A DNA stretch of 64,000 nucleotides from an uncultured bacterium (lineage in GTDB: Bacteria > Patescibacteriota > Minisyncoccia > UBA6257 > UBA9933): positions 2,915-66,914 of the forward strand of contig CAJVXI010000001.1 of assembly GCA_913009635.1 (NCBI GenBank), in the 5' to 3' direction. Each line of letters starts with the position of its first letter. Positions within the stretch are counted from its first letter, which is position 1. A program made the position numbers and the translations under genes. Below the pieces are notes generated by a model. The model worked only from the letters and a program-made list of their open reading frames with translations. It had not been told where the DNA came from and did no database searches. Of this stretch, positions 59 to 52,934 are shown piece by piece.

Positions 59-1247
59 GGCGGTGGCGGTTTTTGTTTTAATTTTCCTTTTGGCCGGATT
101 CTTTGGCTATAATCCATCAGCGTCTTTTTGGTCTAATTTTGAGCGTGGCGAAGGCAGTTTTCAAATGCTTCATCTTTTTATTTTTTTTATTTTATTAATT
201 TTACTTTTTAGAGATAAAGCATCTTGGCGCCGATTGTTTATTATTTCAATAATAGTCGCGAGTTTAGTTATTCTTTACGGAGTTGCCGCTAGCTTAAAAT
301 ATGTTGATGCTGAAATGATTGGCCAAGAATTATCCGGCAAAGGAGGTCCATTTTTTCAAGCTTTTCATAATTTTCCGGGCCAGGCATTTAATGCCCCGGG
401 ATTTCGTTTTGCCGGTTCGCTTGGAAATTCGGCTTATTTGGGCACTTATTTAATTTTTGCCATGTTTTATGCTTTATATCTTATAACAGAATTAAAACGT
501 AAAAAAGTTTTTCGTTATATTTTAATAGGATTAACAGCAGTTTTTATAATATTTTTATTTTTGAGCGGAACAAGAGGCGCGTTTTTGGGATTGGGAGCGG
601 CTGTTTTAGCTGGTCTGTTTTATTTATTTTCTATTTTGCCATCTGGCTGGCTTCGTAAAACAATATTATCTTTTCTTATTGTTTTAATTATTTCCAGTTC
701 ACTCGGTTTTATTTTTCGTCAATCAATACCAATATTAAATAATAGAATTTTTAATATTTCTTTTTTATCAGAAACATTTCAAACAAGATTGTTGCTTTGG
801 CATCAGTCAGTAAAGGCGTTTAATGAGCGGCCGATTTTGGGATGGGGACCTGAAAATTTTCAAGTTTCTTTTGAGAAAAATTACAATCCGTACTTTAGGG
901 TTTGGTTTGATAGAGCTCATAATATATTTTTTGATTATTTAGTTTTTGCGGGAATTTTGGGTTTACTTAGCTTTATGGCGATTTTTGTTGTTTATTATCG
1001 GCAATTCTTCAAGACACGGACTTATGCAGACGAGACACGGACTAATACGGAAAGAAGTCAGTATGAGTCAGTGTTAAGTCCGTATGAGTCTGCGTTATTA
1101 TTCTCTCTGCCTATAGCATATCTTGTCCAAGGACTGGTTCTTTTTGATGTTTTACCAATATATATTAATTTGTTTTTGTTTTTAGCGTTTGCGGTATACA
1201 AATTCCAAGCACCAAGCACCAAATTACAAATAAATTCCAATGACTAA
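27..1247 (+). CDS. O-antigen ligase / Wzy_C-like polytopic membrane protein. The start is uncertain because the 5' end lies in a repeat at the window edge. The C-terminal codons are supplied by a repeat family E fragment.
   Basis: Many TM helices. The 'SGTRGAFLGLGAAVLAGLFYLF' loop is typical of the O-antigen ligase family. It sits directly upstream of the type IV pilus genes. Confidence 0.5.
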   Translation: MFSLCKSALVVAVAVFVLIFLLAGFFGYNPSASFWSNFERGEGSFQMLHLFIFFILLILLFRDKASWRRLFIISIIVASLVILYGVAASLKYVDAEMIGQELSGKGGPFFQAFHNFPGQAFNAPGFRFAGSLGNSAYLGTYLIFAMFYALYLITELKRKKVFRYILIGLTAVFIIFLFLSGTRGAFLGLGAAVLAGLFYLFSILPSGWLRKTILSFLIVLIISSSLGFIFRQSIPILNNRIFNISFLSETFQTRLLLWHQSVKAFNERPILGWGPENFQVSFEKNYNPYFRVWFDRAHNIFFDYLVFAGILGLLSFMAIFVVYYRQFFKTRTYADETRTNTERSQYESVLSPYESALLFSLPIAYLVQGLVLFDVLPIYINLFLFLAFAVYKFQAPSTKLQINSND

Positions 1248-1287
1248 AATTTCTAATTTCTAATTTCTAATTTTTATTAAATTTTTA
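1248..1287. repeat. Short tandem repeat (ttctaat)n that fills an intergenic gap.
   Basis: The sequence reads 'aaatttctaatttctaatttctaattt'. Related copies are at 1683-1721, 7006-7041 and 61223-61262. Confidence 0.8.
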
Positions 1288-1686
1288 ATGGAACAATTTT
1301 CAAACAATAAAAACAGAGAATACGATTTAGAAGAAAGAACTGCTAAATTCGGCGAGGATATAATAGAATTTGTGAGAAATATTAAAAGAGATGATATTAA
1401 CCGCAATATTATTGTTCAATTGGCGCGAGCGGTTACCTCTATAGGTGCTAATTATTGCGAAGCCAACGCCTCCAGCTCTAAACGAGATTTCAGAAATAAA
1501 ATTTATATCTGCAAGAAAGAAACTAATGAAACGAAATATTGGTTAAGAATATTAGCCAAACACCACCCAGAATTAAAAGAAAAAATAAGAAATTTTTGGA
1601 AAGAGGCGCATGAATTGCATCTTATTTTTCAGAAAATCACTAACACTTTGGATAAAAAGCAAAAAAGTTTAGAAATTGAAAATTAG
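1288..1686 (+). CDS. Four-helix-bundle protein (23S rRNA intervening-sequence protein family, TIGR02436-like).
   Basis: The motif pattern 'QLARAVTSIGANYCEA..S.RDF..K......ETNETKYWL' matches this family. Confidence 0.6.
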   Translation: MEQFSNNKNREYDLEERTAKFGEDIIEFVRNIKRDDINRNIIVQLARAVTSIGANYCEANASSSKRDFRNKIYICKKETNETKYWLRILAKHHPELKEKIRNFWKEAHELHLIFQKITNTLDKKQKSLEIEN

Positions 1687-1721
1687 AAATTCAATAGAAA
1701 TTAAAAATTAGAAATTGAAAA

Positions 1722-3437
1722 TTGTCTATGCTTCAAATTCCTCCTCAAAAACTCAAAGAACTTTTAGTTAAACAGGATTTAATTGCTCCGCAACTTTTTG
1801 ACGATTTAGTTTTAGAAGCTGAGCGAATGAAGCAGAACCTTGGCGATATTTTAATTTCCCGCGGAATAATCAGCTATAGTTATTTTTACACTGTTTTAGC
1901 TAATTATTTAGGCGTAGAAAAAACTGATTTAGCCACTCGTTCAATTGACGAAAAAATTTTAAAGTTATTAGATGAAGAAACAGCTCGAAGGAAAAAATTA
2001 ATTCTATTCGCAAAACAGCCGGACGGCGTTTTATCTGTTGCGATGGAAGACCCGAGCGATTTAGAAGCGATTGAATTTTTAGAAAAACGCCTTAATTTAA
2101 AAATCAAACCTTATTTGGCAACCCAAGAAGATTTAGACAGAGGATTCGCGCTTTATGGTCAGCAATTGGTTGAAAATTTCAAAAAAATCGTTGAGGAAAA
2201 TATTTCCGTTTCTCTTAAAGCGCGCGTAAAGAATATTAAAGAAGCAGCTGCTCAAGTACCGATTGTTGCTATTGTTGATAATTTGCTTTCTTATGCTATT
2301 TCACTTCGCGCTTCAGATATTCATATTGAAATCTTAGAAGACGTTATTTTAATTAGATTTAGAATTGATGGAGTGCTTCATGAAATTATCAGAATTCCTA
2401 AAGAGATTCATCCGGCAATTACCGCCCGAATTAAACTTTTGGGTGGTTTAAAAATTGACGAACATATGAAGCCGCAAGACGGACGATTTAGATATAAGAT
2501 AGGGTCCGATTTAATTGATATCCGAGTAGCAATAATGCCCATTTTTTACGGTGAGAAAATTGAAATGCGGCTTTTGTCGTCTACGCAAAAACCATTGTCT
2601 TTTGAGGAATTGGGAATGTTTGAAGATGTGGTAAAAATTGTTGAAGAAAATATTAAAAAAAGTTATGGAATGGTTTTGATTTGCGGGCCAACCGGCTCCG
2701 GAAAAAGCACTACTCTTTATTCAATTTTAAATATTCTTAATAAGCCGGAAGTTAATATTGTTACAATTGAGGACCCAATTGAGTTTGATATAAAATACGT
2801 TAATCAAACACAAATAAATAATTTAGCTGGCATTACTTTTGCAAATGGACTTCGCGCAATTTTAAGGCAAGACCCAAATATAATTATGGTAGGTGAGATT
2901 CGTGATGAAGAAACAGCTGAAATCGCGGTTCATTCAGCGTTAACCGGTCATCTATTACTTTCCAGCTTACACACCAATGATGCTGTTACAGCTATTCCGA
3001 GATTTATTGATATGAAAATTGCTTCGTTTTTGGTTGCTGCTGTTCTTAATATGGTTTTAGCTCAGAGGTTAGTGAGAAAAATTTGTTTGGATTGCATTGA
3101 ATCATTTTCGCCTGATGCCGAAATGATAAAATCTTTAGAAAAACAATTTAAAGAATTAAAAATAGAATCAGGAATCAGTGTTCCAAAAATTCTTTATCGT
3201 GGACGTGGATGTCCAGCTTGCAGCGATACGGGTTATAGGGGTAGATTTGGAATTTTTGAGGTTTTAAGTGTTGATGAAAATATTAGAAAAGTAATTATTG
3301 ACACGAATTTTTCTTTGGATACTTTAAAAGAAGCAGCTAGAAAACAAGGTATGATTACTATGTTTGAAGATAGTTTAAAAAAGGTCGCGAGGGGGTTAAC
3401 AACAATAGAGGAAGTATTGAGAGTTATTAGGGAATAA
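1722..3437 (+). CDS. pilB: Type IV pilus assembly ATPase PilB (GspE family).
   Basis: T2SSE N-domain followed by Walker A 'GPTGSGKST'. The C-terminal tetracysteine 'CLDC...CPAC' is also present. Confidence 0.9.
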   Translation: MSMLQIPPQKLKELLVKQDLIAPQLFDDLVLEAERMKQNLGDILISRGIISYSYFYTVLANYLGVEKTDLATRSIDEKILKLLDEETARRKKLILFAKQPDGVLSVAMEDPSDLEAIEFLEKRLNLKIKPYLATQEDLDRGFALYGQQLVENFKKIVEENISVSLKARVKNIKEAAAQVPIVAIVDNLLSYAISLRASDIHIEILEDVILIRFRIDGVLHEIIRIPKEIHPAITARIKLLGGLKIDEHMKPQDGRFRYKIGSDLIDIRVAIMPIFYGEKIEMRLLSSTQKPLSFEELGMFEDVVKIVEENIKKSYGMVLICGPTGSGKSTTLYSILNILNKPEVNIVTIEDPIEFDIKYVNQTQINNLAGITFANGLRAILRQDPNIIMVGEIRDEETAEIAVHSALTGHLLLSSLHTNDAVTAIPRFIDMKIASFLVAAVLNMVLAQRLVRKICLDCIESFSPDAEMIKSLEKQFKELKIESGISVPKILYRGRGCPACSDTGYRGRFGIFEVLSVDENIRKVIIDTNFSLDTLKEAARKQGMITMFEDSLKKVARGLTTIEEVLRVIRE

Positions 3438-3572: not shown

Positions 3573-4784
3573 ATGAGATTTCATTACATTGCGTCACAGC
3601 CAAACGGTAAAATAGTTGAAGATGAAATTGATGCCCAGGGTCCGGCTGAAGTTTTGGAATTTTTAGCCAATAAGGGTTTAAAGCCAGTTTCTCTTAAACA
3701 AATTAAGGGTTTTGAGCAGACCATTAAACGGCATATTTTCGGTCAGACAATTACGATAGATGATAAAGTTTTTTTAACAAAGTATTTGGCGTTGATGCTT
3801 AAGGTTGGCACTGATCTTTTTAAGGCAATTAATATTTTAATCGCTGATTTTGATAAGCCGTCAGTTAAAGCGTTATTGATCGAAATTCGTAATTCTTTAG
3901 AAAAGGGACAGCCATTTTATACGACTTTTGCTAAATATCCTAAATTTTTCTCACCGGTTTTCGTAAATTTAATTAAATCAGGTGAAGCGTCCGGGAATTT
4001 AGAACAAATTTTTGAAGATTTAAGCAATTCAGTTCAAAAAGAACAGGAGCTTCGCAATCGGATTAAAGCCGCTTTAACTTATCCAATTATTCTTTTAGTG
4101 GTTTCGACAATGATTCTTGTTCTATTGGTAAGTTTTGCTTTGCCGAGAATCGCGAATATTTTTATGTCCAGCGGTTTTGATCCGCCAACTTTTTCAAAAA
4201 TTGTTTTTGCAGTTGGTTTATTTTTTGGTAAATTTGTTTGGATTATTTTAGGCGTAGGAGCGCTTTTGTTATTTGGAAATTGGTTTTTTATTAGTAAAAC
4301 TTTAATTGGTAAAAGATTTATTCAGCGGTTATTTTCTAAGACACCGGTAGTAAAAACAGTTATAAAACGAATCGCCATTCAGCGTTTTGCCACTACCCTT
4401 GCATCGCTTTTAAAAGCAGGTTTGCCCATAACTGATTCTTTAGAGATTACCGCGCAAGCCGTTGGTTTCGAAGAATTAAAGGATGCTCTTTTAAGAATTT
4501 CTCGAGAGGGAATCATTAAGGGAGCGACCATTGGAGAGGCCTTTAAGCGTGAACCGTTTTTCCCAAAGACAGTTTCTAATTTGGTGGCAATTTCTGAAAA
4601 AGCCGGACATATAGAAAATATTTTAGGCGTTTTAGCCCATTTTTATGAATCAGAGATTGATTCGTCAATTAAGTCAATGGTTTCTTTTCTGGAGCCAGTA
4701 TTACTTTTGGTTATTGGATTTATAATTGGCTTAATAGCTCTTTCTATTATCGTGCCGATTTATCAGTTGGTGGGACAGTTCTAA
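3573..4784 (+). CDS. pilC: Type IV pilus platform protein PilC (GspF family).
   Basis: Two GspF-type repeats with TM helices. It lies next to pilB. Confidence 0.85.
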   Translation: MRFHYIASQPNGKIVEDEIDAQGPAEVLEFLANKGLKPVSLKQIKGFEQTIKRHIFGQTITIDDKVFLTKYLALMLKVGTDLFKAINILIADFDKPSVKALLIEIRNSLEKGQPFYTTFAKYPKFFSPVFVNLIKSGEASGNLEQIFEDLSNSVQKEQELRNRIKAALTYPIILLVVSTMILVLLVSFALPRIANIFMSSGFDPPTFSKIVFAVGLFFGKFVWIILGVGALLLFGNWFFISKTLIGKRFIQRLFSKTPVVKTVIKRIAIQRFATTLASLLKAGLPITDSLEITAQAVGFEELKDALLRISREGIIKGATIGEAFKREPFFPKTVSNLVAISEKAGHIENILGVLAHFYESEIDSSIKSMVSFLEPVLLLVIGFIIGLIALSIIVPIYQLVGQF

Positions 4785-4848
4785 TAAATTGCTAAACTGA
4801 TAAATTGTTAAACTGTTGCGCTAACGAATTGATAAAAACAATTTAACA

Positions 4849-5325
4849 ATGAAACAATTCAACAATAGATCATTCACGCTTATAGAGCTTGTAATCGTTA
4901 TTTCTATTACATTACTTCTTTTTTCAGCTGGATTTTTAAAGCTTTTAGATTATCGTCAGCATCAGGCATTAAAGTTGACAAAACAAAATATTGCAGCGGT
5001 TTTAAGAAACGCCCAAAATCTTTCTATTAGTCAGGAATCCGGCAATCGTTGGGGGATTCATTTCGAAAATCCATCTGGAAGCGGTAATGATTTTTACGAA
5101 TTATTTTCAGGAGTGAGCTATAGCACAAGTACTGTTATTTCAAAAAATAATTTAGACCCGGAGCTTCAATTTAACGATCCAGCATCCGGAGTTTCTGAAA
5201 ATATAATTTTTTTGCCTCTTAGCGGAAAATTAAGCGCTGCGGCTTCCATAAATATTTCTTTAGTAAGTGATACTTCGGTTTCCAGTACAATCATTATAAA
5301 TGCTAATGGGCAGATAGAGTATTAA
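4849..5325 (+). CDS. Prepilin-type N-terminal cleavage/methylation-domain pilin.
   Basis: The N-terminus 'NRSFTLIELVIVISI' has F+1 and E+5 of a class III signal. Confidence 0.7.
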   Translation: MKQFNNRSFTLIELVIVISITLLLFSAGFLKLLDYRQHQALKLTKQNIAAVLRNAQNLSISQESGNRWGIHFENPSGSGNDFYELFSGVSYSTSTVISKNNLDPELQFNDPASGVSENIIFLPLSGKLSAAASINISLVSDTSVSSTIIINANGQIEY

Positions 5326-5420
5326 AGACGAGGTTTTAGGATTTAGAATATAGAATATAGGGGTAGGCATTAAAATTTAACAAAACTCCTAAATTCTAAA
5401 TTCTAAATTTTCATAATAAA

Positions 5421-6464
5421 ATGGCAAAACCCCTAAATTCTAAATCCTACCGCGCCCGACATCGCCTTGTGAAGTCAAGGCGGGCGGGTATTCTAAATTC
5501 TTTTAATAAAGGTCAATCTTTTATTGAGATTATTATTGCTTTTTTGATAGGCGCTCTTTTAATTATCGCTTCATCAAGCGCCGTTGTTTTAATAGTTAGG
5601 AATAATTTGGAATCCAAGAATAATCAAATAGCCGCCTTTTTGGTTCAAGAATTAGTTGACAATATTCAGGCAGTTTCTGAATCTGATTGGAATAGTTTTT
5701 ATAACCTTGCTCCAAAAGGCTCGAGTTCACAATATTACGTGAGTTCTACTCGCGCGATTATTAATGACGTGGAAGTTTTAACTATCAAAGAAAGGAATTA
5801 TACTCGATATTTTTCTATTGAGAATGTTAATCGTGATATTTGCGGTACCGGCGATATTAGCAGTGCCGCAACCAGTACTTGTTTGGGTGCTGAGGTTTTA
5901 GAAGACCCATCAACGCAGAAAATTACTGCTTTTGTAAATTGGGCTGGCAATCATTCAATTAGCATAGTTCAATATTTAACTCGGCACCGTGATTCTGTTT
6001 TTGCTCAGAGCAATTGGTCTGGAGGAGTTCTATCGGATGAAATAATTACTTTCTCTAATTACAGATTTTCTACGTCAACTAATATTGATTTTGCCACCAC
6101 CACTGGTTCAATAGTTTTAAGCGCGGGTCAAACAAGCGGTAATTTAACATCCAGCATTTTTGATACTCAAAGAACAGATGGAGCGGCCTTTAATGCCATT
6201 CTTTGGCAGGGCGATATAGGCGACGGAACGGTAAAATTTCGAATTGCTTCGTCAGCCACTTCCACCGATCACTGGAATTATTACGGTTGGGATGGCAGTG
6301 GAAGCACTGATTATCCGGCCAGCGGCTCTGTTGATGACGATACATCGGTTTTAATTATGCCGGAGCATCATAATAATGATAGATACGTTCGTTATAAAGT
6401 ATTTTTAAATAAAACTTCTAATAGTCCGCGAATTGACGACATAATAATTAACTGGAGCTCATAA
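5421..6464 (+). CDS. Large pilin-like protein (minor pilin). The true start is possibly the GTG near 5469.
   Basis: 'KGQSFIEIIIAFLIGALLI' is a prepilin-like signal. The long N-terminal leader includes a GC-rich hairpin and the ctaaattctaaat repeat. Confidence 0.5.
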   Translation: MAKPLNSKSYRARHRLVKSRRAGILNSFNKGQSFIEIIIAFLIGALLIIASSSAVVLIVRNNLESKNNQIAAFLVQELVDNIQAVSESDWNSFYNLAPKGSSSQYYVSSTRAIINDVEVLTIKERNYTRYFSIENVNRDICGTGDISSAATSTCLGAEVLEDPSTQKITAFVNWAGNHSISIVQYLTRHRDSVFAQSNWSGGVLSDEIITFSNYRFSTSTNIDFATTTGSIVLSAGQTSGNLTSSIFDTQRTDGAAFNAILWQGDIGDGTVKFRIASSATSTDHWNYYGWDGSGSTDYPASGSVDDDTSVLIMPEHHNNDRYVRYKVFLNKTSNSPRIDDIIINWSS

Positions 6465-6465
6465 A

Positions 6466-7005
6466 ATGAAACTAAAAACTAAAAACCCCCGCCTGCGCCG
6501 AGGCTTCGGCCTTCGGCCGACGAAGTCGCCTTCGGCCGACGAAGTCGGCGGGCAGGAAAAACTAAAAGCTAATAAAGGTATAATTGCATTGCCGACAATG
6601 CTTTTAATCGGCGGGGTTATTGTGGAAATTGGAATTGCCGGACTTTTAGTTTCTTATTTTTTAATACAGAGCAATCTTGGTATTAGGTTGTCAGCCGAAG
6701 CATTGGCAGTGGCTCGGTCAGGGACCCAGGATGCTATAATTAAAATTATTCGTGATAAAAACTTTACTAGCGGTTCACCTTATTCTTTAACTGTTGGTGA
6801 ATGGTCTGCTCAAATTATTGTTTGTAAAGATTCAAGAACAATTTCCACTGCTTGTGATGACCTAGATCCTTCAAATAAGGGGAAACATGAAATTACATCT
6901 TTGGGGATAGTTCAAAAAAAACAACGTAAAATTCAAACAATTCTTAACGTTAATAGCGCAACTGGAGAAGTTAATGTAGAATCAATAGAAGAGATAGCTA
7001 TTTAA
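6466..7005 (+). CDS. PilX_N-like pilus assembly / minor pilin protein. The N-terminal 40 aa are encoded by a GC-rich tandem hairpin element.
   Basis: 'KGIIALPTMLLIGGVIV...SAEALAVARSGTQDA' resembles the PilX N-domain. Confidence 0.45.
   Translation: MKLKTKNPRLRRGFGLRPTKSPSADEVGGQEKLKANKGIIALPTMLLIGGVIVEIGIAGLLVSYFLIQSNLGIRLSAEALAVARSGTQDAIIKIIRDKNFTSGSPYSLTVGEWSAQIIVCKDSRTISTACDDLDPSNKGKHEITSLGIVQKKQRKIQTILNVNSATGEVNVESIEEIAI
6486..6556. repeat. GC-rich tandem hairpin element (2 x 'ccttcggccgacgaagtcg') inside the 5' end of the ORF.
   Basis: This is a 70 bp GC-rich palindromic segment in a 30% GC genome. A related hairpin 'gccgaaggcgtcgacttcgtc' is at 51387-51412. Confidence 0.7.
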
Positions 7006-7041
7006 AATTTCTAATTTCTAATTTCTAATTTTCAAATATTA
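7006..7041. repeat. (ttctaat)n tandem repeat that fills a stop-to-start gap.
   Basis: The sequence reads 'aaatttctaatttctaatttctaatttt'. Confidence 0.8.
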
Positions 7042-8544
7042 ATGAAAATCAATTTTAAAAAAATACTTAACGCTATAAATCCGCAGCCGGCTATTGGCGG
7101 TCTTGAGATTAATAATTTAGAATTGCGATTTATTAAATTAAAAGGCAATAACCTTTCTTCTATTTCCCAAAAATTACAGCCTGGCATTATTGAAAAGGGA
7201 AAAATAAAAGATCGGGCTAATTTTATAGCAGCTCTTTCAAATCTCCATTTTCAGATTACTCGTAGAAAAAAGAAAAAAATTTACGTAATTGTCGACGTTC
7301 CCAATATTAACGTTTATGCTAAAGTCTTTAATTTACCGAGCGTTGCTTTGGGGAATCTTGAAGAAGCCGCTAAACTTAATCTTCAAATGATTTCACCGAT
7401 TGATTTTGCTGATACATATAATGATTGGCATTCGGTTGGTAATAGTGGATATAATGAGAATCAAATAGAAATTTTGGGAGCTTTGGCGCCGAAATCTATT
7501 ATAGAAGAATTTAGCAGTTCTTTGGAAGAAGCAGGTTTTGGAATAGCGGCAATTGAATTTTCTGCTTTGTCATTAATAAGATTAGCGGTTAATTTTGGGG
7601 TTGGGATTGATATTAAAAATAATTATCTTTTACTTCAGATAGGCAGTGATGGTTTGAATTTTAATATAATGAAGAACGGTAATTTGTATTTCGCGCATTT
7701 TTATTCGTGGGAAACAGACACAAAAAAACAAAAGCAAATATCTTTTTCGGATTTTAAAGAATTAATTACCAGAGAAACTCAAAAAGTATTGAATTTTTAT
7801 GAAACTCATTGGGAAGGAAGAATTAATAAAGTAATTTTAGTAAGCTCAGGACTTGTTAAAGAAACAATTAGTATGCTTTCTGAAAATTTATCACTTGAGG
7901 TTCAGGTATTAACTCTTAAGAAATTTAATAAATTATCTCCAGATTGGTATAGTGCTTTAAGCTCGGCGCTTAGAGGATTAATTCCTCGTTCTCAGGACAC
8001 TATTATTAGCTTAGCAAGCGTCGGCACTGAAGAAGGGTTTAGGCGTTATCGTGTTATTAATTTTATAAATATTTGGCGTAATATTATTTTTGCTTCGCTA
8101 ATTTTCGTTATCGTAGTTTTTGGAGCGTCCGTATGGTTGTTAATAAATACGATGGAATCAGTAAATTTATCGGACATAACTTTGTCGAATGTTTCGGAAA
8201 TCGCAGAATTAAATATACTTCAGGAAAAGGCCAAAAGTTTTAATGAAAAAGTAGAGTTAGCGTTGAAATCACAAAAAACAGGAGCTAATTGGTCTTCATT
8301 TTTTGAGAGAATTAAGGGTTTAATCGGAAATGATATTGTCTTGGAAAGAATTTTTATTCAATCCTTGGAAACTCCGGTCTTGATTAATGCTACGGCAGTT
8401 AGTCAAGAAGCTGCAATAAATTTTAAAAACATTTTAACTCAACAGTCGCAATTTTATGAAATAAATTTGCCTTTATCAAATATTATTTCTTCAACTGAAG
8501 GACCGGTTAAATTCAGTATTAGCTTTAAGATAAGGGGGTTATAA
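7042..8544 (+). CDS. PilM-like actin-fold protein fused to a PilN-like TM/periplasmic segment.
   Basis: A 330-aa cytoplasmic domain is followed by the TM helix 'IIFASLIFVIVVFGASVWLLI' and a ~140-aa tail. The gene sits in the T4P cluster. Confidence 0.45.
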   Translation: MKINFKKILNAINPQPAIGGLEINNLELRFIKLKGNNLSSISQKLQPGIIEKGKIKDRANFIAALSNLHFQITRRKKKKIYVIVDVPNINVYAKVFNLPSVALGNLEEAAKLNLQMISPIDFADTYNDWHSVGNSGYNENQIEILGALAPKSIIEEFSSSLEEAGFGIAAIEFSALSLIRLAVNFGVGIDIKNNYLLLQIGSDGLNFNIMKNGNLYFAHFYSWETDTKKQKQISFSDFKELITRETQKVLNFYETHWEGRINKVILVSSGLVKETISMLSENLSLEVQVLTLKKFNKLSPDWYSALSSALRGLIPRSQDTIISLASVGTEEGFRRYRVINFINIWRNIIFASLIFVIVVFGASVWLLINTMESVNLSDITLSNVSEIAELNILQEKAKSFNEKVELALKSQKTGANWSSFFERIKGLIGNDIVLERIFIQSLETPVLINATAVSQEAAINFKNILTQQSQFYEINLPLSNIISSTEGPVKFSISFKIRGL

Positions 8545-11504: not shown

Positions 11505-11909
11505 ATGCCTTGTCTATTTTGTAAAATTATAAATAAAGAAATACAGGCAGATTTAATATATAATGATGATGACACTATTGGAATTTTAGATATTCATCCT
11601 GTAGCACCTGGACATACGATGATAATTCCAAAATTTCACAGCGAGAATATTTTGGACTTACCGGATGATAAAATTGGAGCAGTTTTTTCGGCGGTTAAAA
11701 AAATCACCGAAATTCTTGATAAATCTTTGAATCCCGATGGTTTTACTATAGGTATCAATCATGGTCGGGTAAGCGGACAAGCGGTTGATCATCTTCATAT
11801 CCATATTATTCCAAGATTTAAAAATGACAAAGGAGGGTCGATACATACCATAATTCATAATCCTCCTAAGGAGTCGTTGGAGGAAATAAAGAAGAAAATT
11901 AAAGCGTAA
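11505..11909 (+). CDS. HIT family protein.
   Basis: The histidine triad 'VDHLHIHIIPR' is present. Confidence 0.85.
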   Translation: MPCLFCKIINKEIQADLIYNDDDTIGILDIHPVAPGHTMIIPKFHSENILDLPDDKIGAVFSAVKKITEILDKSLNPDGFTIGINHGRVSGQAVDHLHIHIIPRFKNDKGGSIHTIIHNPPKESLEEIKKKIKA

Positions 11910-12112
11910 TGTCAATATACGAATGCGTACTAATGATACGAATAAATAAATACTAATATATGATGCCAATATACTAATGGATACTAATGATACGAATAAA
12001 TACTAATTCAATTCGTATGTATTAGTATAATTAGTATGAATTCGTATATTAGCATTTCACATAAGTATAATTAGCATGAATTAGTATATTAGTATTTCAT
12101 TAAGCGAAGCGT
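11904..12112. repeat. Repeat family C copy, long form. It contains the HIT stop codon and abuts the rpsU ATG.
   Basis: The element runs 'gcgtaatgycaatatacgaatgcgtactaatgatacg ... cattaagcgaagcg' and has imperfect TIRs. Confidence 0.85.
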
Positions 12113-12888: not shown

Positions 12889-13446
12889 ATGACGAATAAA
12901 ATATTGGTTGTGAGCTTAGAAAAAGGATTTGAAAAATTTGAGAAAGAAATAAAAAAAACAGTATTTAAAGCGTTAAGAATTTTAAAAAAGAAAAACGTTT
13001 CAGTGGAGATTTATTTGGTTGGAAGCCCAAAAATGCGGTTTTTAAACAAAAAATTTCGTGGTAAAGATAAAACAGCTGATATATTAAGTTTTGAAGAGCC
13101 CAAAAATGGCTTTATTTATCCTTCGTCATCTGCCACTGGCGGAGGCGAATCAAAATTTAAGAGAATTGGTGAAATATACCTCAATCTTGATATATCGCAG
13201 ATAAACGTAGATGAAACGCAGATAAATCCCCCACATATAAATATATGTGGGATAAACGCAAATAAAAAAATCAGCGAAAATCTGCGTAAAAATCTGCGTG
13301 GATCAGTACTTTTAGTGCATGGCTTGCTTCATCTTTTTGGCTATCATCATAATAAGAAAAATGATAAAATTAGAATGGATAAAGCGGAGCAGAAATTACT
13401 CCTTCAAATTACAGATTCCAAACACCAAGCACCAAATAACAAATAA
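12889..13446 (+). CDS. ybeY: rRNA maturation endoribonuclease YbeY carrying an in-frame ~105-bp palindromic insertion. Its C-terminal codons come from a repeat family E copy.
   Basis: The zinc motif 'VHGLLHLFGYHH' is present. The insertion at 13196-13301 encodes 'ISQINVDETQINPPHINICGINANKKISENLRKNLRG', which is not part of the conserved YbeY fold. Confidence 0.7.
   Translation: MTNKILVVSLEKGFEKFEKEIKKTVFKALRILKKKNVSVEIYLVGSPKMRFLNKKFRGKDKTADILSFEEPKNGFIYPSSSATGGGESKFKRIGEIYLNLDISQINVDETQINPPHINICGINANKKISENLRKNLRGSVLLVHGLLHLFGYHHNKKNDKIRMDKAEQKLLLQITDSKHQAPNNK
13196..13301. repeat. Palindromic mini-element (family F, 'acgcagataaa' units around 'cccccacatataaatatatgtggg') inserted in-frame in ybeY.
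   Basis: Left arm 'acgcagataaa' x2 and right arm 'aaatctgcgt' x2. A related unit sits in secF at 20698-20748. Confidence 0.75.
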
Positions 13447-13576
13447 GCACCAAATTCTAATTCGCCAGCTGGCGAACTAAACACGAGTTTCGATAATTGG
13501 AATTTCGGTCATTGAAATTTACCCCTCAGTCCTGAAATTCTCGGGGTTGAAGGATTTGTGATTTGGAATTTGTTAT
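13412..13576. repeat. Repeat family E copy ('caccaagcaccaaataacaaataa ... cgccagctggcg ... acccctcagtcctgaaattctcggggt').
   Basis: Its reverse complement is at 26602-26778. A 5' fragment forms the end of the ORF at 1196-1247. Confidence 0.85.
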
Positions 13577-14815
13577 TTGGGATTTAGTATTATGTACATC
13601 ACTGCCTTAGATATTGGATCAGCTCAAATTAAGACATTGGTAGCTGAAGTTCAGAAGAATGGACAATTAGCTATAATAAATGTTTTTAAAACACCTTCAG
13701 AAGGAATTCGCAAAGGCGAGGTTATTGATATTGAAGACGCTACTCGTTCAATAAATTCTTCTTTAGCAGAAGTAAAACATTTTAATAAATCCGCGCTTAA
13801 AAATATTTTTGTTAATATTGGTGGAAGTAATGTAAAAATTCATAACTCACGTGGAATTATTGCTGTTTCCAGAGCTGATAATGAAATTAGTCAGGATGAT
13901 ATTGATAGAGTTATTAAGGCATCTCAAGCGATTAATCTTTCTCCAAATAGAATGATTCTTCATACTCTTGCTCGTGAGTTTATTATTGATAATATCAGTA
14001 ACATTAAAGAACCGTTAGGAATGATAGGAACTCGTTTAGAGGTAAATACTTTAATTATTGATGCTTTTTCTCCAGCTGTTAAAAATCTTATTAAATGTAT
14101 TGAAACCGCTGGCGGTAATTTGGGCGGTTTAATTTATGGTCCTTTAGCTGCTGCTCGTTCAGTTTTGACAAAGAATCAAAAAATATTAGGCTCAATTTTA
14201 GTGGATATTGGTTTTGGCACTACCGGTATGGCTGTTTATGAAGATAATAAACTTTTGAATGCTTCTGTTTTTCCTGTTGGTACCGGCAATATTACCAATG
14301 ATTTAGCAATTGGATTAAAATGTTCAATTAAAACAGCTGAAAAGGTAAAACTTTCTTTTGGTTCTGCTTTAGCAAGAGAAGTTCCCAGTAAAGAAAAAGT
14401 TGATATGTATGAAATAGACGAAACTATTAAAGCGTCTCCGAGTCGTAAATTTATTTCTGAAATTATTGAAGTTCGTTTGGCTGAGGTTTTTGAATTTATT
14501 AATAACGAGTTAAAATTTATTGGTAAAATGAGACAGTTGCCGGCAGGCATTGTTCTATGCGGCAGTGGCGCTAAAATGCCTGGAATTGCTGAGTTGGCGA
14601 AACGAGAATTAAAACTGCATGTTCAAATTGGTATTCCTGAGACAGATGTTTTAGAATTAACTAATGCCGAATTCAGCAGTCAGATTGAAGATCCGGAATT
14701 TGCTACTGCGGTTGGACTGTTATTGTGGGGCAATGATCAACTTGCCAGGGATAGTAATTGGCTTCCGATAAAAAAGTTTTCAATAATAAATATTTTAAAA
14801 CATTTCAAACCCTAG
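13577..14815 (+). CDS. ftsA: Cell division protein FtsA. The start may be at 13592.
   Basis: 'ALDIGSAQIKTLVAEV' is an actin-fold phosphate-1 motif. The gene is adjacent to ftsZ. Confidence 0.85.
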   Translation: MGFSIMYITALDIGSAQIKTLVAEVQKNGQLAIINVFKTPSEGIRKGEVIDIEDATRSINSSLAEVKHFNKSALKNIFVNIGGSNVKIHNSRGIIAVSRADNEISQDDIDRVIKASQAINLSPNRMILHTLAREFIIDNISNIKEPLGMIGTRLEVNTLIIDAFSPAVKNLIKCIETAGGNLGGLIYGPLAAARSVLTKNQKILGSILVDIGFGTTGMAVYEDNKLLNASVFPVGTGNITNDLAIGLKCSIKTAEKVKLSFGSALAREVPSKEKVDMYEIDETIKASPSRKFISEIIEVRLAEVFEFINNELKFIGKMRQLPAGIVLCGSGAKMPGIAELAKRELKLHVQIGIPETDVLELTNAEFSSQIEDPEFATAVGLLLWGNDQLARDSNWLPIKKFSIINILKHFKP

Positions 14816-20561: not shown

Positions 20562-21470
20562 ATGAATATAATAGGACATCGTAAAATTTTTCTTTCTATT
20601 TCCGGCATTTTAGTCATTGCTAGTATTATTGCTGTTGTAGTTTTTGGTCTTAAACCGGGAATTGATTTTGTTGGCGGTACTTTATGGCAACTTCGATTAA
20701 CGCAGACAAACGCAGATGGTACGCGGATAAACGCAGATTTAATAAAAAATTTTTTTGAAGAAGAATTAGCAGTAAAAAATATAACTATTTATCCATCAGA
20801 AGATAAGAGTTTTCTGATTCGATTTGGTCATATTTCTGAAATTGAACATCAGCAATACATTCAAGCGTTTAATAATAAATTTGGAGAAATTGAGGAGATG
20901 CGTTATGAAACAATCGGACCGACAATAGGCGTAGAGCTTAAGAAAAAAGCTATTTGGGCGATTATTTTGGTACTTTTGGGAATTTCTTTGTATATTTCTT
21001 TTGCTTTTAGAAAAGTATCTTATCCGATTAAATCTTGGAAATACGGAATTATTGCTTTAATTACGCTTTTTCATGATGTTTCTATTTCTGTTGGATTTTT
21101 GGCTATTTTTGGCTGGCAATTAGGAATCGAATTAGATACAAATTTTATAGTGGCTCTTTTGGTAATTATGGGTTTTTCAATTCATGACACTATCGTAGTT
21201 TTTGACCGAATTAGAGAGAATGTTTTAATCAATCGTCATCGTCTTAAATTAGATGAAATTATTAATCAAAGCGTTAACCAGACAATAATGCGTTCAATTA
21301 ATACTTCATTTACTTTAATATTGGTATTATTAACTTTATTCTTTATTGGTCCTGCTTCATTAAAATATTTTATTTTAGTGATATTGTTGGGTACAATTAT
21401 TGGCACTTATTCTTCAATCTTTGTAGCTTCACCGCTATTGACAATTTGGCACAAATCTGATAAAAAGTAG
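20562..21470 (+). CDS. secF: Protein translocase subunit SecF with a small tandem-unit insertion at 20698-20748.
   Basis: 'GIDFVGGT' followed by a C-terminal TM bundle. The insertion 'acgcagacaaacgcagatggtacgcggataaacgcagat' encodes 'TQTNADGTRINAD'. Confidence 0.9.
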   Translation: MNIIGHRKIFLSISGILVIASIIAVVVFGLKPGIDFVGGTLWQLRLTQTNADGTRINADLIKNFFEEELAVKNITIYPSEDKSFLIRFGHISEIEHQQYIQAFNNKFGEIEEMRYETIGPTIGVELKKKAIWAIILVLLGISLYISFAFRKVSYPIKSWKYGIIALITLFHDVSISVGFLAIFGWQLGIELDTNFIVALLVIMGFSIHDTIVVFDRIRENVLINRHRLKLDEIINQSVNQTIMRSINTSFTLILVLLTLFFIGPASLKYFILVILLGTIIGTYSSIFVASPLLTIWHKSDKK

Positions 21471-24570: not shown

Positions 24571-24774
24571 AGCGTAATGCCAATATACGAATGCGTACTA
24601 ATGATACAAATAAATAAATACTAATATATGATGCCAATATACTAATGGATACTAATGATACAAATAAATACTAATTCGTATGTATTAGTATAATTAGCAT
24701 GAATTCGTATATTAGCATTTCACATAAGTATAATTAGCATGAATTAGTATATTAGCATTACATTAAGCGAAGCA
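24571..24774. repeat. Repeat family C copy, long form.
   Basis: Nearly identical to 11904-12112. It ends 'cattaagcgaagcaATG'. Confidence 0.85.
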
Positions 24775-30501: not shown

Positions 30502-30564
30502 ATTGGCATAATTATACCATAAATTTAGTTGTTTACAATTAACGGGAAAATGGCTATATTATAA

Positions 30565-31980: not shown

Positions 31981-33219
31981 ATGAAAGCAAAAGATAAAAA
32001 AATCGTATTCGTAGCGCTATCAGGCGGCGTTGATTCAAGTGTTGCGGCTTTATTATTAAAAAAACAGGGCTATTATGTAGTTGGTGTTTTTATGCGTTGT
32101 TGGAGAGATGAAAGCCCCGACGCTTCGGTCGGGGCAAGCTGTATGGAAAAAGATGCTGAAGATGCCAGAAAGGTGGCGGAAAAATTGGAAATTCCTTTTT
32201 ATGTTTGGGATTTTGAAAAAGAGTATAAGAAAAGAGTGGTTGATTATATGGTTAATGGTTATAAAAAAGGCATCACTCCTAATCCTGATGTAATGTGCAA
32301 TAAAGAAATCAAGTTTGGTTTGTTTTTGGAAAAAGCGCTGAAGATGGGAGCGGATTATGTGGCAACGGGACACTATGTCCGGCTTTACAGCGTTGTAAAT
32401 GTTCAAAATGTTGTAGATGTTGTAAATGAAAAACAATTACAACAAGCGAAGCGATCCAACAAGCGAAGCGATACAGCATTACAACTTTTTGAGGCTAAGG
32501 ACAAGAATAAAGACCAATCTTATTTTCTTTGGACCTTAACGCAAAAACAATTACAGCATTGCCTTTTTCCTATTGGTGATTATTTGAAGTCCGAAGTTCG
32601 GAAAATCGCTAAAAAAGCTGATTTATTAACAGCTGAGAAAAAGGATTCTCAGGGTATTTGTTTTTTGGGCAAAGTAACACTTGATGATTTTTTGGGTAAA
32701 TATATTCCTAAAAAGAAAGGGGATATTATTAATATTTCAGGGGAAAAAATCGGCGAACACAAAGGCGCTTATTTTTATACTATTGGCCAGCGGCGCGGAC
32801 TTGGAATTGGCGGCCGCCCAATAAAATTGGGCGAGTCTCGTCCCAAAGGGACGGGAGGCGCACCTTATTATGTCGTTGAAAAAGACGTTAAGAAAAACAT
32901 TATTAAAGTTGCCGAAGGAAAAAGCGAAGCGCTTTATAAAAAAGAAATTGAATTATCGGATGTTAATTTTATCAATCCTATAATTCATAATTCAAAATTC
33001 ATAATTCCAGTGTTGGCTCGGGTGCGTTATAGGCAGCCTTTAATAAAAGCCAAATTAGTAATTAGTAATCAGGAATTAGTAAATAGGAAAAACAAAAAGT
33101 CCCTAGTTACTAGTTACTATTTACTATTTACTGAGCCCATTAAATTCATCGCTCCTGGCCAGTCAGCAGTGTTTTATAGTTCAAAAGGTGAAATGTTGGG
33201 CGGAGGTGTGATAAAATAA
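31981..33219 (+). CDS. mnmA: tRNA-specific 2-thiouridylase MnmA with small repeat insertions.
   Basis: PP-loop 'VALSGGVDSSV' and the region 'CNKEIKFGLFLEKA'. In-frame repeats are at 32108-32135, 32441-32473 and 33095-33135. Confidence 0.85.
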   Translation: MKAKDKKIVFVALSGGVDSSVAALLLKKQGYYVVGVFMRCWRDESPDASVGASCMEKDAEDARKVAEKLEIPFYVWDFEKEYKKRVVDYMVNGYKKGITPNPDVMCNKEIKFGLFLEKALKMGADYVATGHYVRLYSVVNVQNVVDVVNEKQLQQAKRSNKRSDTALQLFEAKDKNKDQSYFLWTLTQKQLQHCLFPIGDYLKSEVRKIAKKADLLTAEKKDSQGICFLGKVTLDDFLGKYIPKKKGDIINISGEKIGEHKGAYFYTIGQRRGLGIGGRPIKLGESRPKGTGGAPYYVVEKDVKKNIIKVAEGKSEALYKKEIELSDVNFINPIIHNSKFIIPVLARVRYRQPLIKAKLVISNQELVNRKNKKSLVTSYYLLFTEPIKFIAPGQSAVFYSSKGEMLGGGVIK

Positions 33220-33223: not shown

Positions 33224-33760
33224 ATGATTATTATTTTTACGGGAAACGGAAAAGGTAAAACAACTGCAGCATTGGGGCAGGCGATTCGTGCTTTGGGGCA
33301 GGAGAAGAAAGTTTTGATTATTCAGTTTATAAAAAATATTTCTAGCGGCGAACATAAATTTTTTTCCTCTTTCCTCTTTCCTCTTTCCTCTTTTAGAATC
33401 ATTAAAGGAGGTAAAGGGTTTGTAGGAATTTTAGGCGACAAGCTTCCATTTTCCGAACATAAAAAAGCCGCGCAAAAAATATTAAAATTAGCAGCCCAAA
33501 AAATTAATCCGCCAGCTGGCGGAAAAAAATACGATTTGATTGTTTTAGACGAAATAAACGTGGCTGTAAATTTGAAATTGTTAAGCGCTAAAAAAGTATT
33601 GGATATTTTAAAAAATTTTCCTAAAGACAAAGACATAATTTTAACTGGCCGTAGCGCGCCAAAAAGTTTTATAAAAATAGCTGATTTAGTGACTGAAATG
33701 AAAGAAGTTAAGCACCCGTTTAAAAAAGGCGTGAGGGCAAAAAAAGGAATTGAATTTTAA
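33224..33760 (+). CDS. Cob(I)yrinic acid a,c-diamide / cob(I)alamin adenosyltransferase (CobA/CobO/BtuR family) with an in-frame (cctcttt)n insertion.
   Basis: P-loop 'IIFTGNGKGKTTAALG' and 'LIVLDEI'. The insertion at 33359-33394 'tcctctttcctctttcctctttcctctttt' encodes 'FSSFLFPLSSF'. Confidence 0.7.
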   Translation: MIIIFTGNGKGKTTAALGQAIRALGQEKKVLIIQFIKNISSGEHKFFSSFLFPLSSFRIIKGGKGFVGILGDKLPFSEHKKAAQKILKLAAQKINPPAGGKKYDLIVLDEINVAVNLKLLSAKKVLDILKNFPKDKDIILTGRSAPKSFIKIADLVTEMKEVKHPFKKGVRAKKGIEF

Positions 33761-33782: not shown

Positions 33783-35252
33783 ATGCGCATATATGATATT
33801 GCTTTTTATGTAGTTGTTTTCTTTTTGCTTGGAATATTGGCAGCGAGTTTAAAAATAGATTTTATAATTATTGTATTGGCTGCTGTTTTGGTGGCAGCCA
33901 TATTTTTATTTTCCACCTATTTTCAATCTTACGAGGTTCAACCTCGTAAGATTGAGAGAAAGCTTTTTTGGTTTGCTGGCTTGTCTTTATTTATTATTGT
34001 CGGCGCTCTCTATTATTTTGTGGATGATTATCGTTCCAGAAATATCAATATTACTTTTGATCAGAAAATAAGTTTTGAGGGGATAGTGACAAGAAATCCT
34101 GCGAGAGGCAATCAACAAAAATTAACAATTGAACTTCAACTGCCTTATTCTGGAAGAGTTTTGGTAAAACTTAAAAATTATCCGAGTTTTAATTATGGAG
34201 ATTTAATAAGTTTTGAAGGACAAATCAAAAAACCAGAAAAGGGCTCATATGCCAATTATTTAGCCAAGGATAAAATTTTCGGTACCATCAGTTATCCAAA
34301 AACTAATTTTATTAGTAGTGGTCACGGTTCAAAAATTAAATCAACACTTTTTTCTTTGAAAGAAAGAACAGTCAGTAATTTTCAGAAGGTTTTACCCGCG
34401 GAAAACGCCGCTTTTTTATCCGGAATTACTTTAGGTGAACGAGCCGAATTTTCCAAAGAATTCAAGGAAGCAATGAGTAAAAGCGGTACTACTCATCTGG
34501 TGGCGCTTTCAGGATACAATATTACTATTTTAGTGGTTGCTATCGCTTATATTTTGAGTTCTTTTGTATCACGCCGTTTAGTTTTTTGGTTAACGCTTCT
34601 TATAATAATTGGTTTTGTAATAATGACAGGTGCCGAGGCCTCAGTAGTGCGAGCAGCTGTAATGGGTGGAATTATTCTGTTAGCAAAGCGTGCTAACCGA
34701 CTTTATAGTTTTCGCAATGCTATTGCTATCGCTGGTTTTTTAATGGTTTTGGAAAATCCAAAAGTTTTGAGTTTTGATATTGGTTTTCAGCTCTCTTTTA
34801 TGGCTTTATTGGGTATAGTTTATTTGCGGCCGGCTATTCAAAAATTCTTTAAATTTAGCGAAAAGCCAGGATTTCTTTTATGGAAAGAAAATTTTTTAAC
34901 TACTTTCTCAGCTCAGTTATTTGTTTTGCCGCTGCTTGTTTTGTATTTTGGCAATTTTTCTCCAATATCTTTATTGTCCAATATTTTAATTCTTAGCGTT
35001 ATTCCCTTAACAATGACTTTGGGTTTTATTATCGGGTTCTTGGGATTTATTCATTATTATTTTTCCCTGATTTTTGGATGGCTCACCAACTTACTTTTAT
35101 CTTATGAGACATTTGTAATTAAGTTTTTGGGAGAGTTGAATATTTTACAAATTAATTCATTAAGTGTTCCTTTGGTAATTACTTATTATTTTATTTTAAT
35201 CGTTTTTATTTTGTATGCTCGCCGCCTTCCGAAGCCGCGCCAAAATTTTTAA
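33783..35252 (+). CDS. comEC: ComEC/Rec2 competence (DNA internalisation) channel domain protein.
   Basis: DUF4131-like N-terminal domain plus the competence-domain motif 'GTTHLVALSGYNITIL'. It has multiple TM helices. Confidence 0.8.
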   Translation: MRIYDIAFYVVVFFLLGILAASLKIDFIIIVLAAVLVAAIFLFSTYFQSYEVQPRKIERKLFWFAGLSLFIIVGALYYFVDDYRSRNINITFDQKISFEGIVTRNPARGNQQKLTIELQLPYSGRVLVKLKNYPSFNYGDLISFEGQIKKPEKGSYANYLAKDKIFGTISYPKTNFISSGHGSKIKSTLFSLKERTVSNFQKVLPAENAAFLSGITLGERAEFSKEFKEAMSKSGTTHLVALSGYNITILVVAIAYILSSFVSRRLVFWLTLLIIIGFVIMTGAEASVVRAAVMGGIILLAKRANRLYSFRNAIAIAGFLMVLENPKVLSFDIGFQLSFMALLGIVYLRPAIQKFFKFSEKPGFLLWKENFLTTFSAQLFVLPLLVLYFGNFSPISLLSNILILSVIPLTMTLGFIIGFLGFIHYYFSLIFGWLTNLLLSYETFVIKFLGELNILQINSLSVPLVITYYFILIVFILYARRLPKPRQNF

Positions 35253-52844: not shown

Positions 52845-52934
52845 TATCAGCAAAAATCCGCATAAATCAGCGTAAGGACATCATAAACGCTGATTAATGC
52901 TGATACGGCTGATTTATGCTGATAAATTATAAAA

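Follow-up and report, generated by a model that had tools for sequence, protein, structure and literature searches.

In a 64,000-nucleotide (nt) stretch of contig CAJVXI010000001.1 from an uncultured bacterium (the whole stretch is hereafter called the window), the gene ybeY carries an in-frame palindrome, and further hairpin-forming repeats lie in frame inside the unrelated genes mnmA and comEC, an open reading frame (ORF) of the Wzy family and two pilin-like genes. We conclude that the ybeY palindrome and most of the other sites are probably copies of dispersed hairpin-repeat DNA elements lying inside genes. The encoded YbeY is 100% identical to the ENH26_01885 protein of a metagenome-assembled Candidatus Wolfebacteria genome. 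A census by sliding-window folding (48 nt), which replaced a perfect-stem census that was too strict and missed imperfect arms, counted 46 in-gene segments folding at ≤ −16 kcal/mol versus 10–21 after codon shuffling, a 2- to 4-fold excess. The spacers between genes are also full of palindromes made of tandem 7–10-nt units; several families were recognized, with intergenic copies at distant loci being 59–208 nt long and 94–97% identical, and scans of the window for tRNAs, rRNAs and Rfam families returned none above any family's gathering threshold. An earlier sequence-only reading had pointed to repeats of several unit families inside conserved genes, and every sequence that it listed was recovered, at or within a few bases of where it had placed it.

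The ybeY palindrome (13195–13304) is a structured unit. Its 5′ arm comprises three ACGCAGAT-type units at 13195, 13205 and 13216, its centre is a perfect 10-bp hairpin (13230–13239 and 13242–13251), and its 3′ arm (13266–13300) comprises three ATCTGCGT-type units at 13271, 13281 and 13293. The RNA was calculated to fold at −42.1 kcal/mol versus −19.8 ± 3.5 kcal/mol for shuffled sequences, none of the 200 dinucleotide shuffles equalling it (here and below, the fold z relates the native folding energy to that of shuffled sequences). Four other assemblies (ERZ1742238, DRR093004, DRR093005 and GCA_011039985.1) are 99.97% identical to this region over 3–20 kb, all repeats included, and within the repeats no base differs among the five assemblies, which come from four samples. 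Thus, the ybeY palindrome is not an assembly artefact.

Comparison with homologues identified the palindrome as an insertion at a variable site. Most Wolfebacteria YbeY homologues have 135–148 amino acids (aa) versus 185 in the window, and the stretch between GEI and HG.LHL (HGLLHL in the window) spans 47 aa, the second longest among 114 homologues. This stretch is 13–20 aa long in 81 of the homologues (71%) and 23–51 aa in the other 33, many of which hold unrelated low-complexity sequences; DNA was obtained for five of the variable regions, and every one of them folds as a hairpin (z = −4.2 to −7.4) although the sequences differ. The ybeY site is a hotspot, with a palindrome in ∼29% of homologues, rather than a simple empty-versus-filled site. 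The earlier attribution of the extra YbeY residues to the palindrome stands in part, since further residues come from a small GC-rich hairpin (13108–13150), which is extra relative to most homologues, and from an intergenic palindromic element (13418–13585) whose left arm forms the end of the gene. The latter has an inverted, 94–95% identical copy at 26602–26746 and a further copy at 1205–1251, and its CCAAGCA / CACCAAAT arm supplies a C-terminal tail plus stop codon both to YbeY (…SKHQAPNNK) and to the Wzy-family ORF (…QAPSTKLQINSND); similar tails (…KHEIRNNI) end the YbeY of other Wolfebacteria. Every aligned homologue has the three zinc-binding histidines, H144, H148 and H154. In the metal-binding motif HGLLHLFGYHH (13318–13350), an H stands where the canonical D precedes the last histidine, and close homologues have N or D there.

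YbeY was the sole protein modelled, by AlphaFold with an 18-sequence alignment (mean predicted local distance difference test score, pLDDT, 72). The model has a confident core, which matches solved YbeY structures at a target-normalised template-modelling score (TM-score) of 0.70–0.81, and pLDDT falls below 50 only at residues 74–86, 104–127 and 178–185, corresponding to the small GC hairpin, to the 5′ arm plus central hairpin of the palindrome, and to the intergenic-repeat tail, respectively; the 3′ arm was modelled as the start of the catalytic helix. The insert is thus predicted to be a disordered loop in an otherwise intact YbeY fold.

A near-identical strain carries another palindrome at the same site. 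Related loci were collected as 660 kb of Paceibacterota DNA (L numbers denote contigs or species of such relatives; P0165 denotes a Wzy homologue). L001, a contig of a sister sample, is identical to the window for ∼760 nt upstream and ∼270 nt downstream of the ybeY site, and in it window positions ∼13172–13318 are replaced by a different, 81-nt heptamer palindrome, with a few mismatches clustered at both borders; L001 also has a G-to-E variant in the small GC hairpin. The L001 palindrome is equal in length and 81.5% identical to that of L086, whose ybeY flanks are only 64–69% identical, and peptides resembling the L001 insert are present in several other YbeY homologues. L001 is an ENA contig at 2× coverage with Illumina adapter sequence at both ends (1–13 and ∼1150–1222). 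Since this near-identical strain holds a different palindrome, the window element has recently replaced an older resident one, most likely through a short recombination tract, and the sequences point to fast turnover, with presence/replacement polymorphism between near-identical strains; the sequence-only reading had suggested looking for presence/absence polymorphism in population variants. This allele swap, the sole one found, came from the YbeY homologue search; the 90%-identity clusters of eight window proteins yielded substitutions alone and no presence/absence variants, and two of these few strain substitutions fall inside inserts (T-to-P in MnmA and G-to-D in CobA).

The ybeY element belongs to a family with decamer-unit arms. 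The family was defined from metagenomic copies by scanning with the 17-mer ACGCAGATAAACGCAGA, which matched at least 120 metagenomic contigs with GC fractions, here the only proxy for taxonomic breadth, of 0.32 to 0.71. Among the matches listed, a third unit or an inverted partner is present in 77 of 120 contigs; the units are spaced by 10 nt in 249 of 285 cases, ∼120 of which follow from the query itself, and by 11 nt in none; the arms mostly have 3 units; forward-then-reverse arms outnumber the opposite order by 44 to 4; the inter-arm gap is mostly 2–190 nt, with four cases of 440–620 nt; and six GxxExxY genes occur, five of them no more than 125 nt away from an arm. The ends typically have the sequence CCGCAGAT nn ACGCAGAT aa ACGCAGAT ... 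ATCTGCGT tt ATCTGCGT nn ATCTGCGG, with a few more complementary bases outside, and other in-gene members were found in a DnaG-type primase gene (contig of 34% GC) and in a glucosaminidase gene (gut contig). As ybeY has 3 + 3 ACGCAGAT-type units with the forward arm first, its element is a gene-less member of this ACGCAGAT family, and phmmer found no GxxExxY gene in ybeY or elsewhere in the window. The strict 10-nt phasing is relaxed to 10/11 and 10/12 in ybeY and to 10/11/10 in secF; this deviation is the one needed to avoid an in-frame TAA and reads as that of an adapted member, not of a non-member. Units of the ybeY type recur in the window in secF and, as AATCAGCGT, in the rplB–rpsS spacer; in relatives they occur in cobA of L006 and in secD and secF of L087, and one is apparent in P0165, judged from its LINAD peptide repeat only. 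Palindromic repeats were seen in several spacers of the ribosomal-protein operons, which are normally tightly packed (52845–52925, 47557–47654, 51927–52024 and 55586–55683, within region 40000–64000).

The unit spacing bears on translation. A perfect 10-nt forward array reads TQINADKRR and then a stop, a TAA occurring within 30 nt in every forward frame, and the reverse arm of such an array is open in all frames. In all four in-gene forward arrays (ybeY and secF of the window, secF and secD of L087), the spacing alternates between 10 and 11 nt, and the units occupy codon phases 0 and 1 only. This spacing skips the stop phase, so the host frame has been preserved by selection, which speaks against excision of the hairpin from the mRNA. 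As had been claimed from the sequence, the in-gene elements keep the reading frame; they contain no stop codon, and the host genes retain intact frames and catalytic motifs, which speaks against frameshifted pseudogenes. The in-gene copies are hence read as translated within the host protein, with the 10/11-nt spacing as a clean signature; SQINVDETQINPPHINICGINANK is an example of a peptide predicted from such a hairpin.

Most of the other sites (Table 1) are likewise absent or different in orthologues, the secF array and the first mnmA site being shared with other species. An alignment of MnmA from 79 Patescibacteria revealed five hypervariable loops, at four of which the window protein is longer than solved structures, and the DNA of 84 MnmA inserts of ≥8 aa folds with a median z of −1.9 versus +0.2 for matched core segments (Mann-Whitney p = 1e-10). 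MnmA-insert DNA thus outfolds its shuffles, so that hairpin-encoded inserts are the rule in this group and not a quirk of one genome. Three insertions had been proposed in mnmA; the repeats exist, and two of them add 24 aa (the composite, in a loop hypervariable across the 79 species) and 13 aa (the heptamer palindrome, which contains the T-to-P strain variant) relative to solved MnmA structures. The segments then delimited were too short, 32441–32473 being part of the composite and 33095–33135 only the 3′ arm of the palindrome 33053–33135, and there are more than three sites: a double GC hairpin, absent in L006, adds 9 aa versus solved structures. As an insertion, the GC hairpin of site 1 is weakened, for it adds only 3 aa versus solved structures and is common to the window and the two closest species (L006 and L007), although absent in most other Paceibacterota.

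In comEC, the palindrome adds 7–8 aa versus L008 and L022. The 'PilX-like' ORF 6466–7005 does contain the hairpin described earlier, located in its N-terminal leader peptide, and forms a series with relatives, from no hairpin in L093 through one of 36 nt in L092 to one of 75 nt in the window, whose additional 39 nt sit within the loop of the older hairpin. The leader of the neighbouring pilin-like ORF 5421–6464 encodes PLNSKSY, the peptide of the right arm of the L090 cassette described below; both pilin-like inserts are N-terminal, before a KG|QSFIE-type cleavage motif, and L092 and L093 lack the window hairpins in the ORF 5421 leader and in two intergenic spacers. Another hotspot is the loop that joins the last two membrane helices in the Wzy-family ORF. 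A palindrome is indeed present in this ORF, while the ORF itself (27–1247) is cut by the window edge; its homologues start ∼65 aa earlier, and since they align from about residue 65, the GTG at 27 is not a real start. The related unit formerly noted in secF proved to be a tandem array lacking an inverted partner, and orthologue L087 has an ACGCAGA-type unit at the same site. The (CCTCTTT)4 repeat of cobA, a real tandem repeat, was ruled out as an insertion, since of 14 orthologues only L006 is shorter at this place and the other 13 have the same length. The repeat shows local pairing with AAAGGAGGTAAAGGG, which lies downstream and codes for the conserved KGGKG, but over 131 nt the fold z is +0.4. 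A separate cobA palindrome, CCGCCAGCTGGCGG, adds 4 aa versus the closest orthologues and contains the G-to-D strain variant. At least five in-gene hairpins had been missed before (mnmA 32810–32860, comEC 33923–33955, cobA ∼33508–33523, ybeY ∼13108–13150 and the ORF 5421 leader). In L086–L088, repeat-encoded inserts of other types were observed in orthologues of pth, ftsA, yqeY, ftsZ and secD: pth of L087 and L088 has inserts of SLRGAKRGSN… / …CEERSDEAI… type, and NNQQPTT repeats occur in secD of L086 and ybeY of L087.

Table 1. Host gene, in-gene hairpin-repeat sites and related features of the window
Feature	Position	Strand	Details
ybeY coding sequence (host gene)	12889..13446	+	185 aa; Pfam YbeY 3.4e-20
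In-frame palindromic element in ybeY	13195..13304	+	110 nt; repeats, fold z = −6.4
Small GC-rich hairpin in ybeY	13108..13150 (about)	+	encodes SSSATGGGES; −15.5 kcal/mol (48-nt scan)
Intergenic palindromic element, left arm = last residues and stop codon of ybeY	13418..13585	+	inverted repeats I2 (83 nt, 94%) and I20 (43 nt, 95%)
mnmA GC hairpin, site 1 (CCCCGAC GCTTCG GTCGGGG)	32108..32135	+	encodes SPDASVGA; −20.6 kcal/mol
mnmA composite	32392..32485	+	four GTTGTAAAT 9-mers, two 17-mers, ATTACAAC complements; tandem repeats
mnmA double GC hairpin	32810..32860	+	encodes RPIKLGESRPKGT; DNA fold z = −5.35; −26.2 kcal/mol
mnmA heptamer palindrome	33053..33135	+	(AATTAGT)n, loop, (CTAGTTA/CTATTTA)n; DNA fold z = −3.9
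cobA (CCTCTTT)4 tandem repeat	33359..33394	+	alignment with 14 orthologues: no net length change
cobA small GC palindrome CCGCCAGCTGGCGG	33506..33525	+	encodes PPAGG
comEC perfect 33-nt palindrome, 16-bp stem	33923..33955	+	between transmembrane segments; −24.3 kcal/mol
secF tandem array, four ACGCAGA-type decamer units	20695..20741	+	spacing 10/11/10 nt; no inverted arm
GC-rich nested hairpin, leader peptide of ORF 6466–7005 ('PilX-like')	6486..6560	+	DNA and protein alignment
Heptamer arm copy and GC hairpin, leader of pilin-like ORF 5421–6464	5430..5488	+	−21.6 kcal/mol
CGGACT-type palindrome, loop between last two membrane helices of Wzy_C-family ORF	1020..1100	+	RNA scan z = −6.1; DNA fold weaker, z = −2.4
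Gene-bearing hairpin cassette	1248..1723	+	(AATTTCT)n arm, four-helix-bundle gene 1288–1686, (AGAAATT)n arm
Intergenic relative of ybeY element, AATCAGCGT / ACGCTGATT units, between rplB and rpsS	52845..52925	+	DNA fold z = −4.5

Some hairpins of the same build enclose a gene. The arms of the window cassette 1248–1723 are 42 nt long and 86% complementary, and its ORF matches PF05635 ('23S rRNA intervening sequence protein', 4e-15) and TIGR02436 (3.9e-21). When the cassette ends are joined, they resemble the gene-less hairpins at 61222–61338 (80% identical), 45282–45428 (72%) and 7002–7045, the identities ranging over 72–84%, and all three retain the ATTTTTAATG start context. In L089, a Wzy-family orthologue (4001–6004) contains a complete in-frame GxxExxY (PDDEXK_3) domain (TIGR04256, 1.6e-32) between its last two membrane helices, enclosed by CGGACT-type arms as at window 1020–1100, and a four-helix-bundle gene with arms of its own lies just downstream; in L090, AGAATTT / AAATTCT arms flank a four-helix-bundle gene that is fused to the pilin-like gene exactly at the position of the window hairpin. 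A phmmer search over the 660 kb of related loci found four four-helix-bundle or GxxExxY genes, every one flanked by 30–42-nt tandem-unit inverted arms and three of them situated at, or orthologous to, window hairpin sites. The association of intervening-sequence genes with such arms is striking, yet it rests on few cases.

These data fit a model in which an element has two inverted arms, each of two to four tandem 7–11-nt units; full-length relatives enclose a small gene, of the GxxExxY PD-(D/E)xK type or the four-helix-bundle 'S23p' type, which the in-gene copies here lack. The element would be carried in DNA, transcribed and translated within the host protein, and would survive where the frame is kept, no stop codon arises and the location is permissive, namely in a disordered loop at the protein surface, in a loop that connects membrane helices or in a leader peptide that can be cleaved off. 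These sites would be hit or remodelled repeatedly and would therefore become hypervariable hotspots; new hairpins may nest inside older ones, and alleles may be swapped through short recombination tracts. Candidate routes of spread are the action of an enclosed PD-(D/E)xK-type protein on the phased sites of the arms, recombination of dispersed copies by the host system, and local slippage with template switching, the last of which clearly contributes to growth and to tandem-only arrays (cobA and secF). We infer that the elements are or were mobile, that they would be moved by the enclosed genes or the host recombination system, and that they presumably bring the host no benefit. The outer complementary bases and the nested hairpins weakly hint that existing palindromes are preferred targets.

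A broader reading is possible, and we offer it tentatively. The in-gene hairpins would be gene-less derivatives of a class of mobile cassettes present in many, probably diverse, lineages; the arms would be arrays of 8-nt putative protein-binding sites phased at one helical turn, and the cargo a GxxExxY PD-(D/E)xK or four-helix-bundle S23p/Avd-like protein, seen as an intervening sequence when the cassette lands in 23S rRNA. Preferential entry into existing palindromes or hairpin loops would explain the nested copies and the recurrent hotspots, and essential genes of Patescibacteria would have been colonized as translated loops. If true, the long-enigmatic intervening-sequence genes would gain a role in mobility.

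Several points weigh against dispersed, mobile elements. Pfam scans of part of the window ORFs detected no transposase or known mobility gene, and to our knowledge neither GxxExxY nor four-helix-bundle proteins move DNA. Within the 64 kb of the window, the ybeY element occurs in full length only once, and just its units recur. The one clean site, the ORF 6466 leader (L093 empty versus L092 and the window filled), shows no target-site duplication, the KLKTK...KLK direct repeat being already present in the empty allele. In the metagenomes, GxxExxY genes accompany only 5 of the 120 copies among the matches listed, ∼43 of these 120 have no extra family feature, chance matches to a 17-mer being possible in a collection of this size, and taxonomic breadth is gauged from GC alone. 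Finally, an inverted arm is missing from some tandem arrays (secF; secD of L087) and cobA has no net insertion, cases for which local slippage is the simpler explanation.

This last point leads to the strongest rival, a local origin without mobility: slippage would yield tandem 7–11-mers and template switching or fold-back synthesis the inverted arm, in an AT-rich, repair-poor genome, and the product would persist where a loop tolerates it. Besides the tandem-only arrays of secF and secD and the lack of a target-site duplication, this origin accords with (CCTCTTT)4 of cobA, which leaves the length unchanged and is the complement of the neighbouring codons for the conserved KGGKG, with the window pilin-leader hairpin, which grew by 2 × 19-nt tandem units inside an older hairpin, and with the L086 ybeY hairpin, whose stem extends into conserved LLV codons. 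It is unlikely to be the general explanation, given that the 3 + 3 architecture, 10-nt phasing and fixed polarity recur in at least 77 unrelated metagenomic contigs of widely differing GC, that the same unit occurs across genes and species (ybeY, secF, L006 cobA, L087 secD and secF, and P0165 Wzy), that unlinked intergenic copies are 94–97% identical over up to 208 nt, and that the L001 and L086 palindromes are closer to each other than their flanks are.

Less probable still is that the hairpins are selected as RNA or DNA signals (RNase III sites, stabilisers or terminators, or translational pause sites), with the protein insert as a by-product. Hairpins do follow very many genes and also occur within ribosomal-protein operons, several species keep a hairpin at the ybeY site although its sequence changes, and the loops of the GC hairpins are of the unusually stable CUUCGG / CGAAG types; intervening sequences of like architecture are, moreover, RNase III substrates (PMC4990558). 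Against this, 71% of the YbeY homologues (n = 114) have no extended insert, close relatives are without the pilin-leader and intergenic-spacer hairpins, position, length and family vary freely with no Rfam family matching, and the avoidance of stop codons shows constraint acting on translation. That the residues themselves are selected as lineage-specific functional loops, the palindromic DNA being incidental, seems improbable indeed: orthologues share mnmA site 1 (window, L006 and L007) and the secF QTNAD repeat (window and L087), but the ybeY inserts were modelled as disordered, they differ wholly between near-identical strains, one DNA unit gives different peptides depending on frame and orientation, and two of the few strain substitutions fall within inserts. 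An assembly or sequencing artefact, for which only the 2× coverage and terminal adapters of L001 speak, or a set of pseudogenes, can practically be dismissed in view of the base-for-base agreement of the five assemblies and the intact host frames. Copies of dispersed hairpin-repeat elements thus remain our preferred reading of these sites.

Other observations were made in the window, which has a GC content of 32–36% and closely packed plus-strand genes, including a type IV pilus cluster, cell-division genes, secDF and ribosomal-protein operons. An intergenic repeat of 208 nt occurs at 24571–24778 and 58196–58403, 34 kb apart and 97% identical, and also at 11903–12110 and 30511–30718; the pair is the clearest sign of recent within-genome dispersal. 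Positions 31249–31980 (730 nt) lack any ORF of ≥100 aa and contain two perfect 33-nt palindromes (31801–31833 and 31855–31887), the first of which recurs at 42079–42113; no Rfam match of this stretch lies above the gathering threshold. The region 40172–40500, upstream of an L28-like small ORF (40405–40689), is strongly structured and has no convincing gene and no Rfam hit at E ≤ 0.1. Two divergent paralogues of TraG/VirD4-like coupling ATPases face each other (24775–26214 on the plus and 28852–30501 on the minus strand) and share 135 nt of inverted similarity at 76% (25526–25660 and 29700–29834); between them lie cutA (26296–26601), a 579-aa ORF without a Pfam match (26779–28518) and a YGGT-like ORF (28546–28848). 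The nucleoside diphosphate kinase (39575–40171; 198 aa) matches its Pfam model in two stretches, implying an insert of ∼40 aa after the first third that does not look repeat-derived.

The occurrence of short inverted repeats inside genes invites comparison with miniature inverted-repeat elements such as ERIC, BOX and Correia, which are short, non-autonomous and multi-copy and sometimes form in-frame fusions (review PMC10969869). The elements here also have terminal inverted repeats. They differ in that their arms are arrays of tandem units, not unique terminal repeats, and in that no target-site duplication was found at the one informative site; gene-bearing versions share the arms, but GxxExxY and four-helix-bundle genes are not recognized transposases. 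REP/BIME sequences are abundant imperfect palindromes, often located after genes and in operons, which serve as targets for insertions, are mobilised by RAYT and are essentially extragenic. By inspection of the arm sequences examined, no shared GTAG head was noted, and no RAYT gene turned up in the Pfam scans of part of the window ORFs, no search having been aimed at RAYT.

In behaviour, the elements resemble the Rickettsia palindromic elements, as the sequence-only reading had suggested. In the account of Ogata et al. 2000 given in PMC10969869, these comprise several families, many members of which lie in frame in unrelated housekeeping genes and are translated, and they have no transposase of their own. 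Here too, palindromes of several families sit in frame in unrelated genes (ybeY, mnmA, comEC, the Wzy-family ORF and two pilin-like genes) and would add fold-compatible extra peptides. The Rickettsia elements measure ∼100–150 nt versus 30–110 nt here (110 nt in ybeY and 28–95 nt at most other sites); moreover, the host belongs to another phylum, no sequence relation was shown, the arms here consist of tandem 7–11-nt units, some relatives enclose a gene, insertions recur in the same loop, strains exchange alleles, and what is conserved is the DNA unit and not the peptide. Thus, the elements behave like Rickettsia palindromic elements but are set apart from them by taxon and unit structure, and we claim no membership of any of the ten Rickettsia families described. 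In the literature searched, no description was found of in-frame palindromic elements in Patescibacteria (Candidate Phyla Radiation) or of the ACGCAGAT family. Translated selfish DNA in essential enzymes would extend beyond Rickettsia to a genome-reduced Candidate Phyla Radiation bacterium that tolerates such copies and keeps acquiring them; the turnover of elements would be a source of rapid protein-loop variation and inflates and confuses protein alignments, gene calls and strain comparisons in these lineages.

In architecture, the closest known system is the 23S rRNA intervening sequence, because the ACGCAGAT family is linked to GxxExxY genes and other families flank four-helix-bundle genes. 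The intervening sequence of Coxiella burnetii has inverted repeats at its ends, folds as a stem-loop, carries an S23p four-helix-bundle gene (PF05635), is excised by RNase III, and has tandem heptameric repeats (GACAGAT) of variable number in its stem region (PMC4990558). Likewise, the elements here have an inverted-repeat stem whose loop may hold a four-helix-bundle gene, a gene that tends to decay (PMC4990558), and their arms include the heptamer arrays AATTTCT, AGAATTT and AAATCTC, the window cassette 1248–1723 being an exact match of this kind. Unlike intervening sequences, they lie in coding sequences and spacers and not in helix 25 or 45, there being no rRNA in the window; the in-gene copies are predicted to be translated rather than excised, and the ybeY copy encloses no gene. 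In-frame palindromic elements and rRNA intervening sequences, hitherto treated apart, therefore share one architecture here, and the ACGCAGAT family, easily searchable by its three units per arm, 10-nt phasing and GxxExxY cargo, offers a testbed for the origin and spread of intervening sequences and for the function of their small genes.

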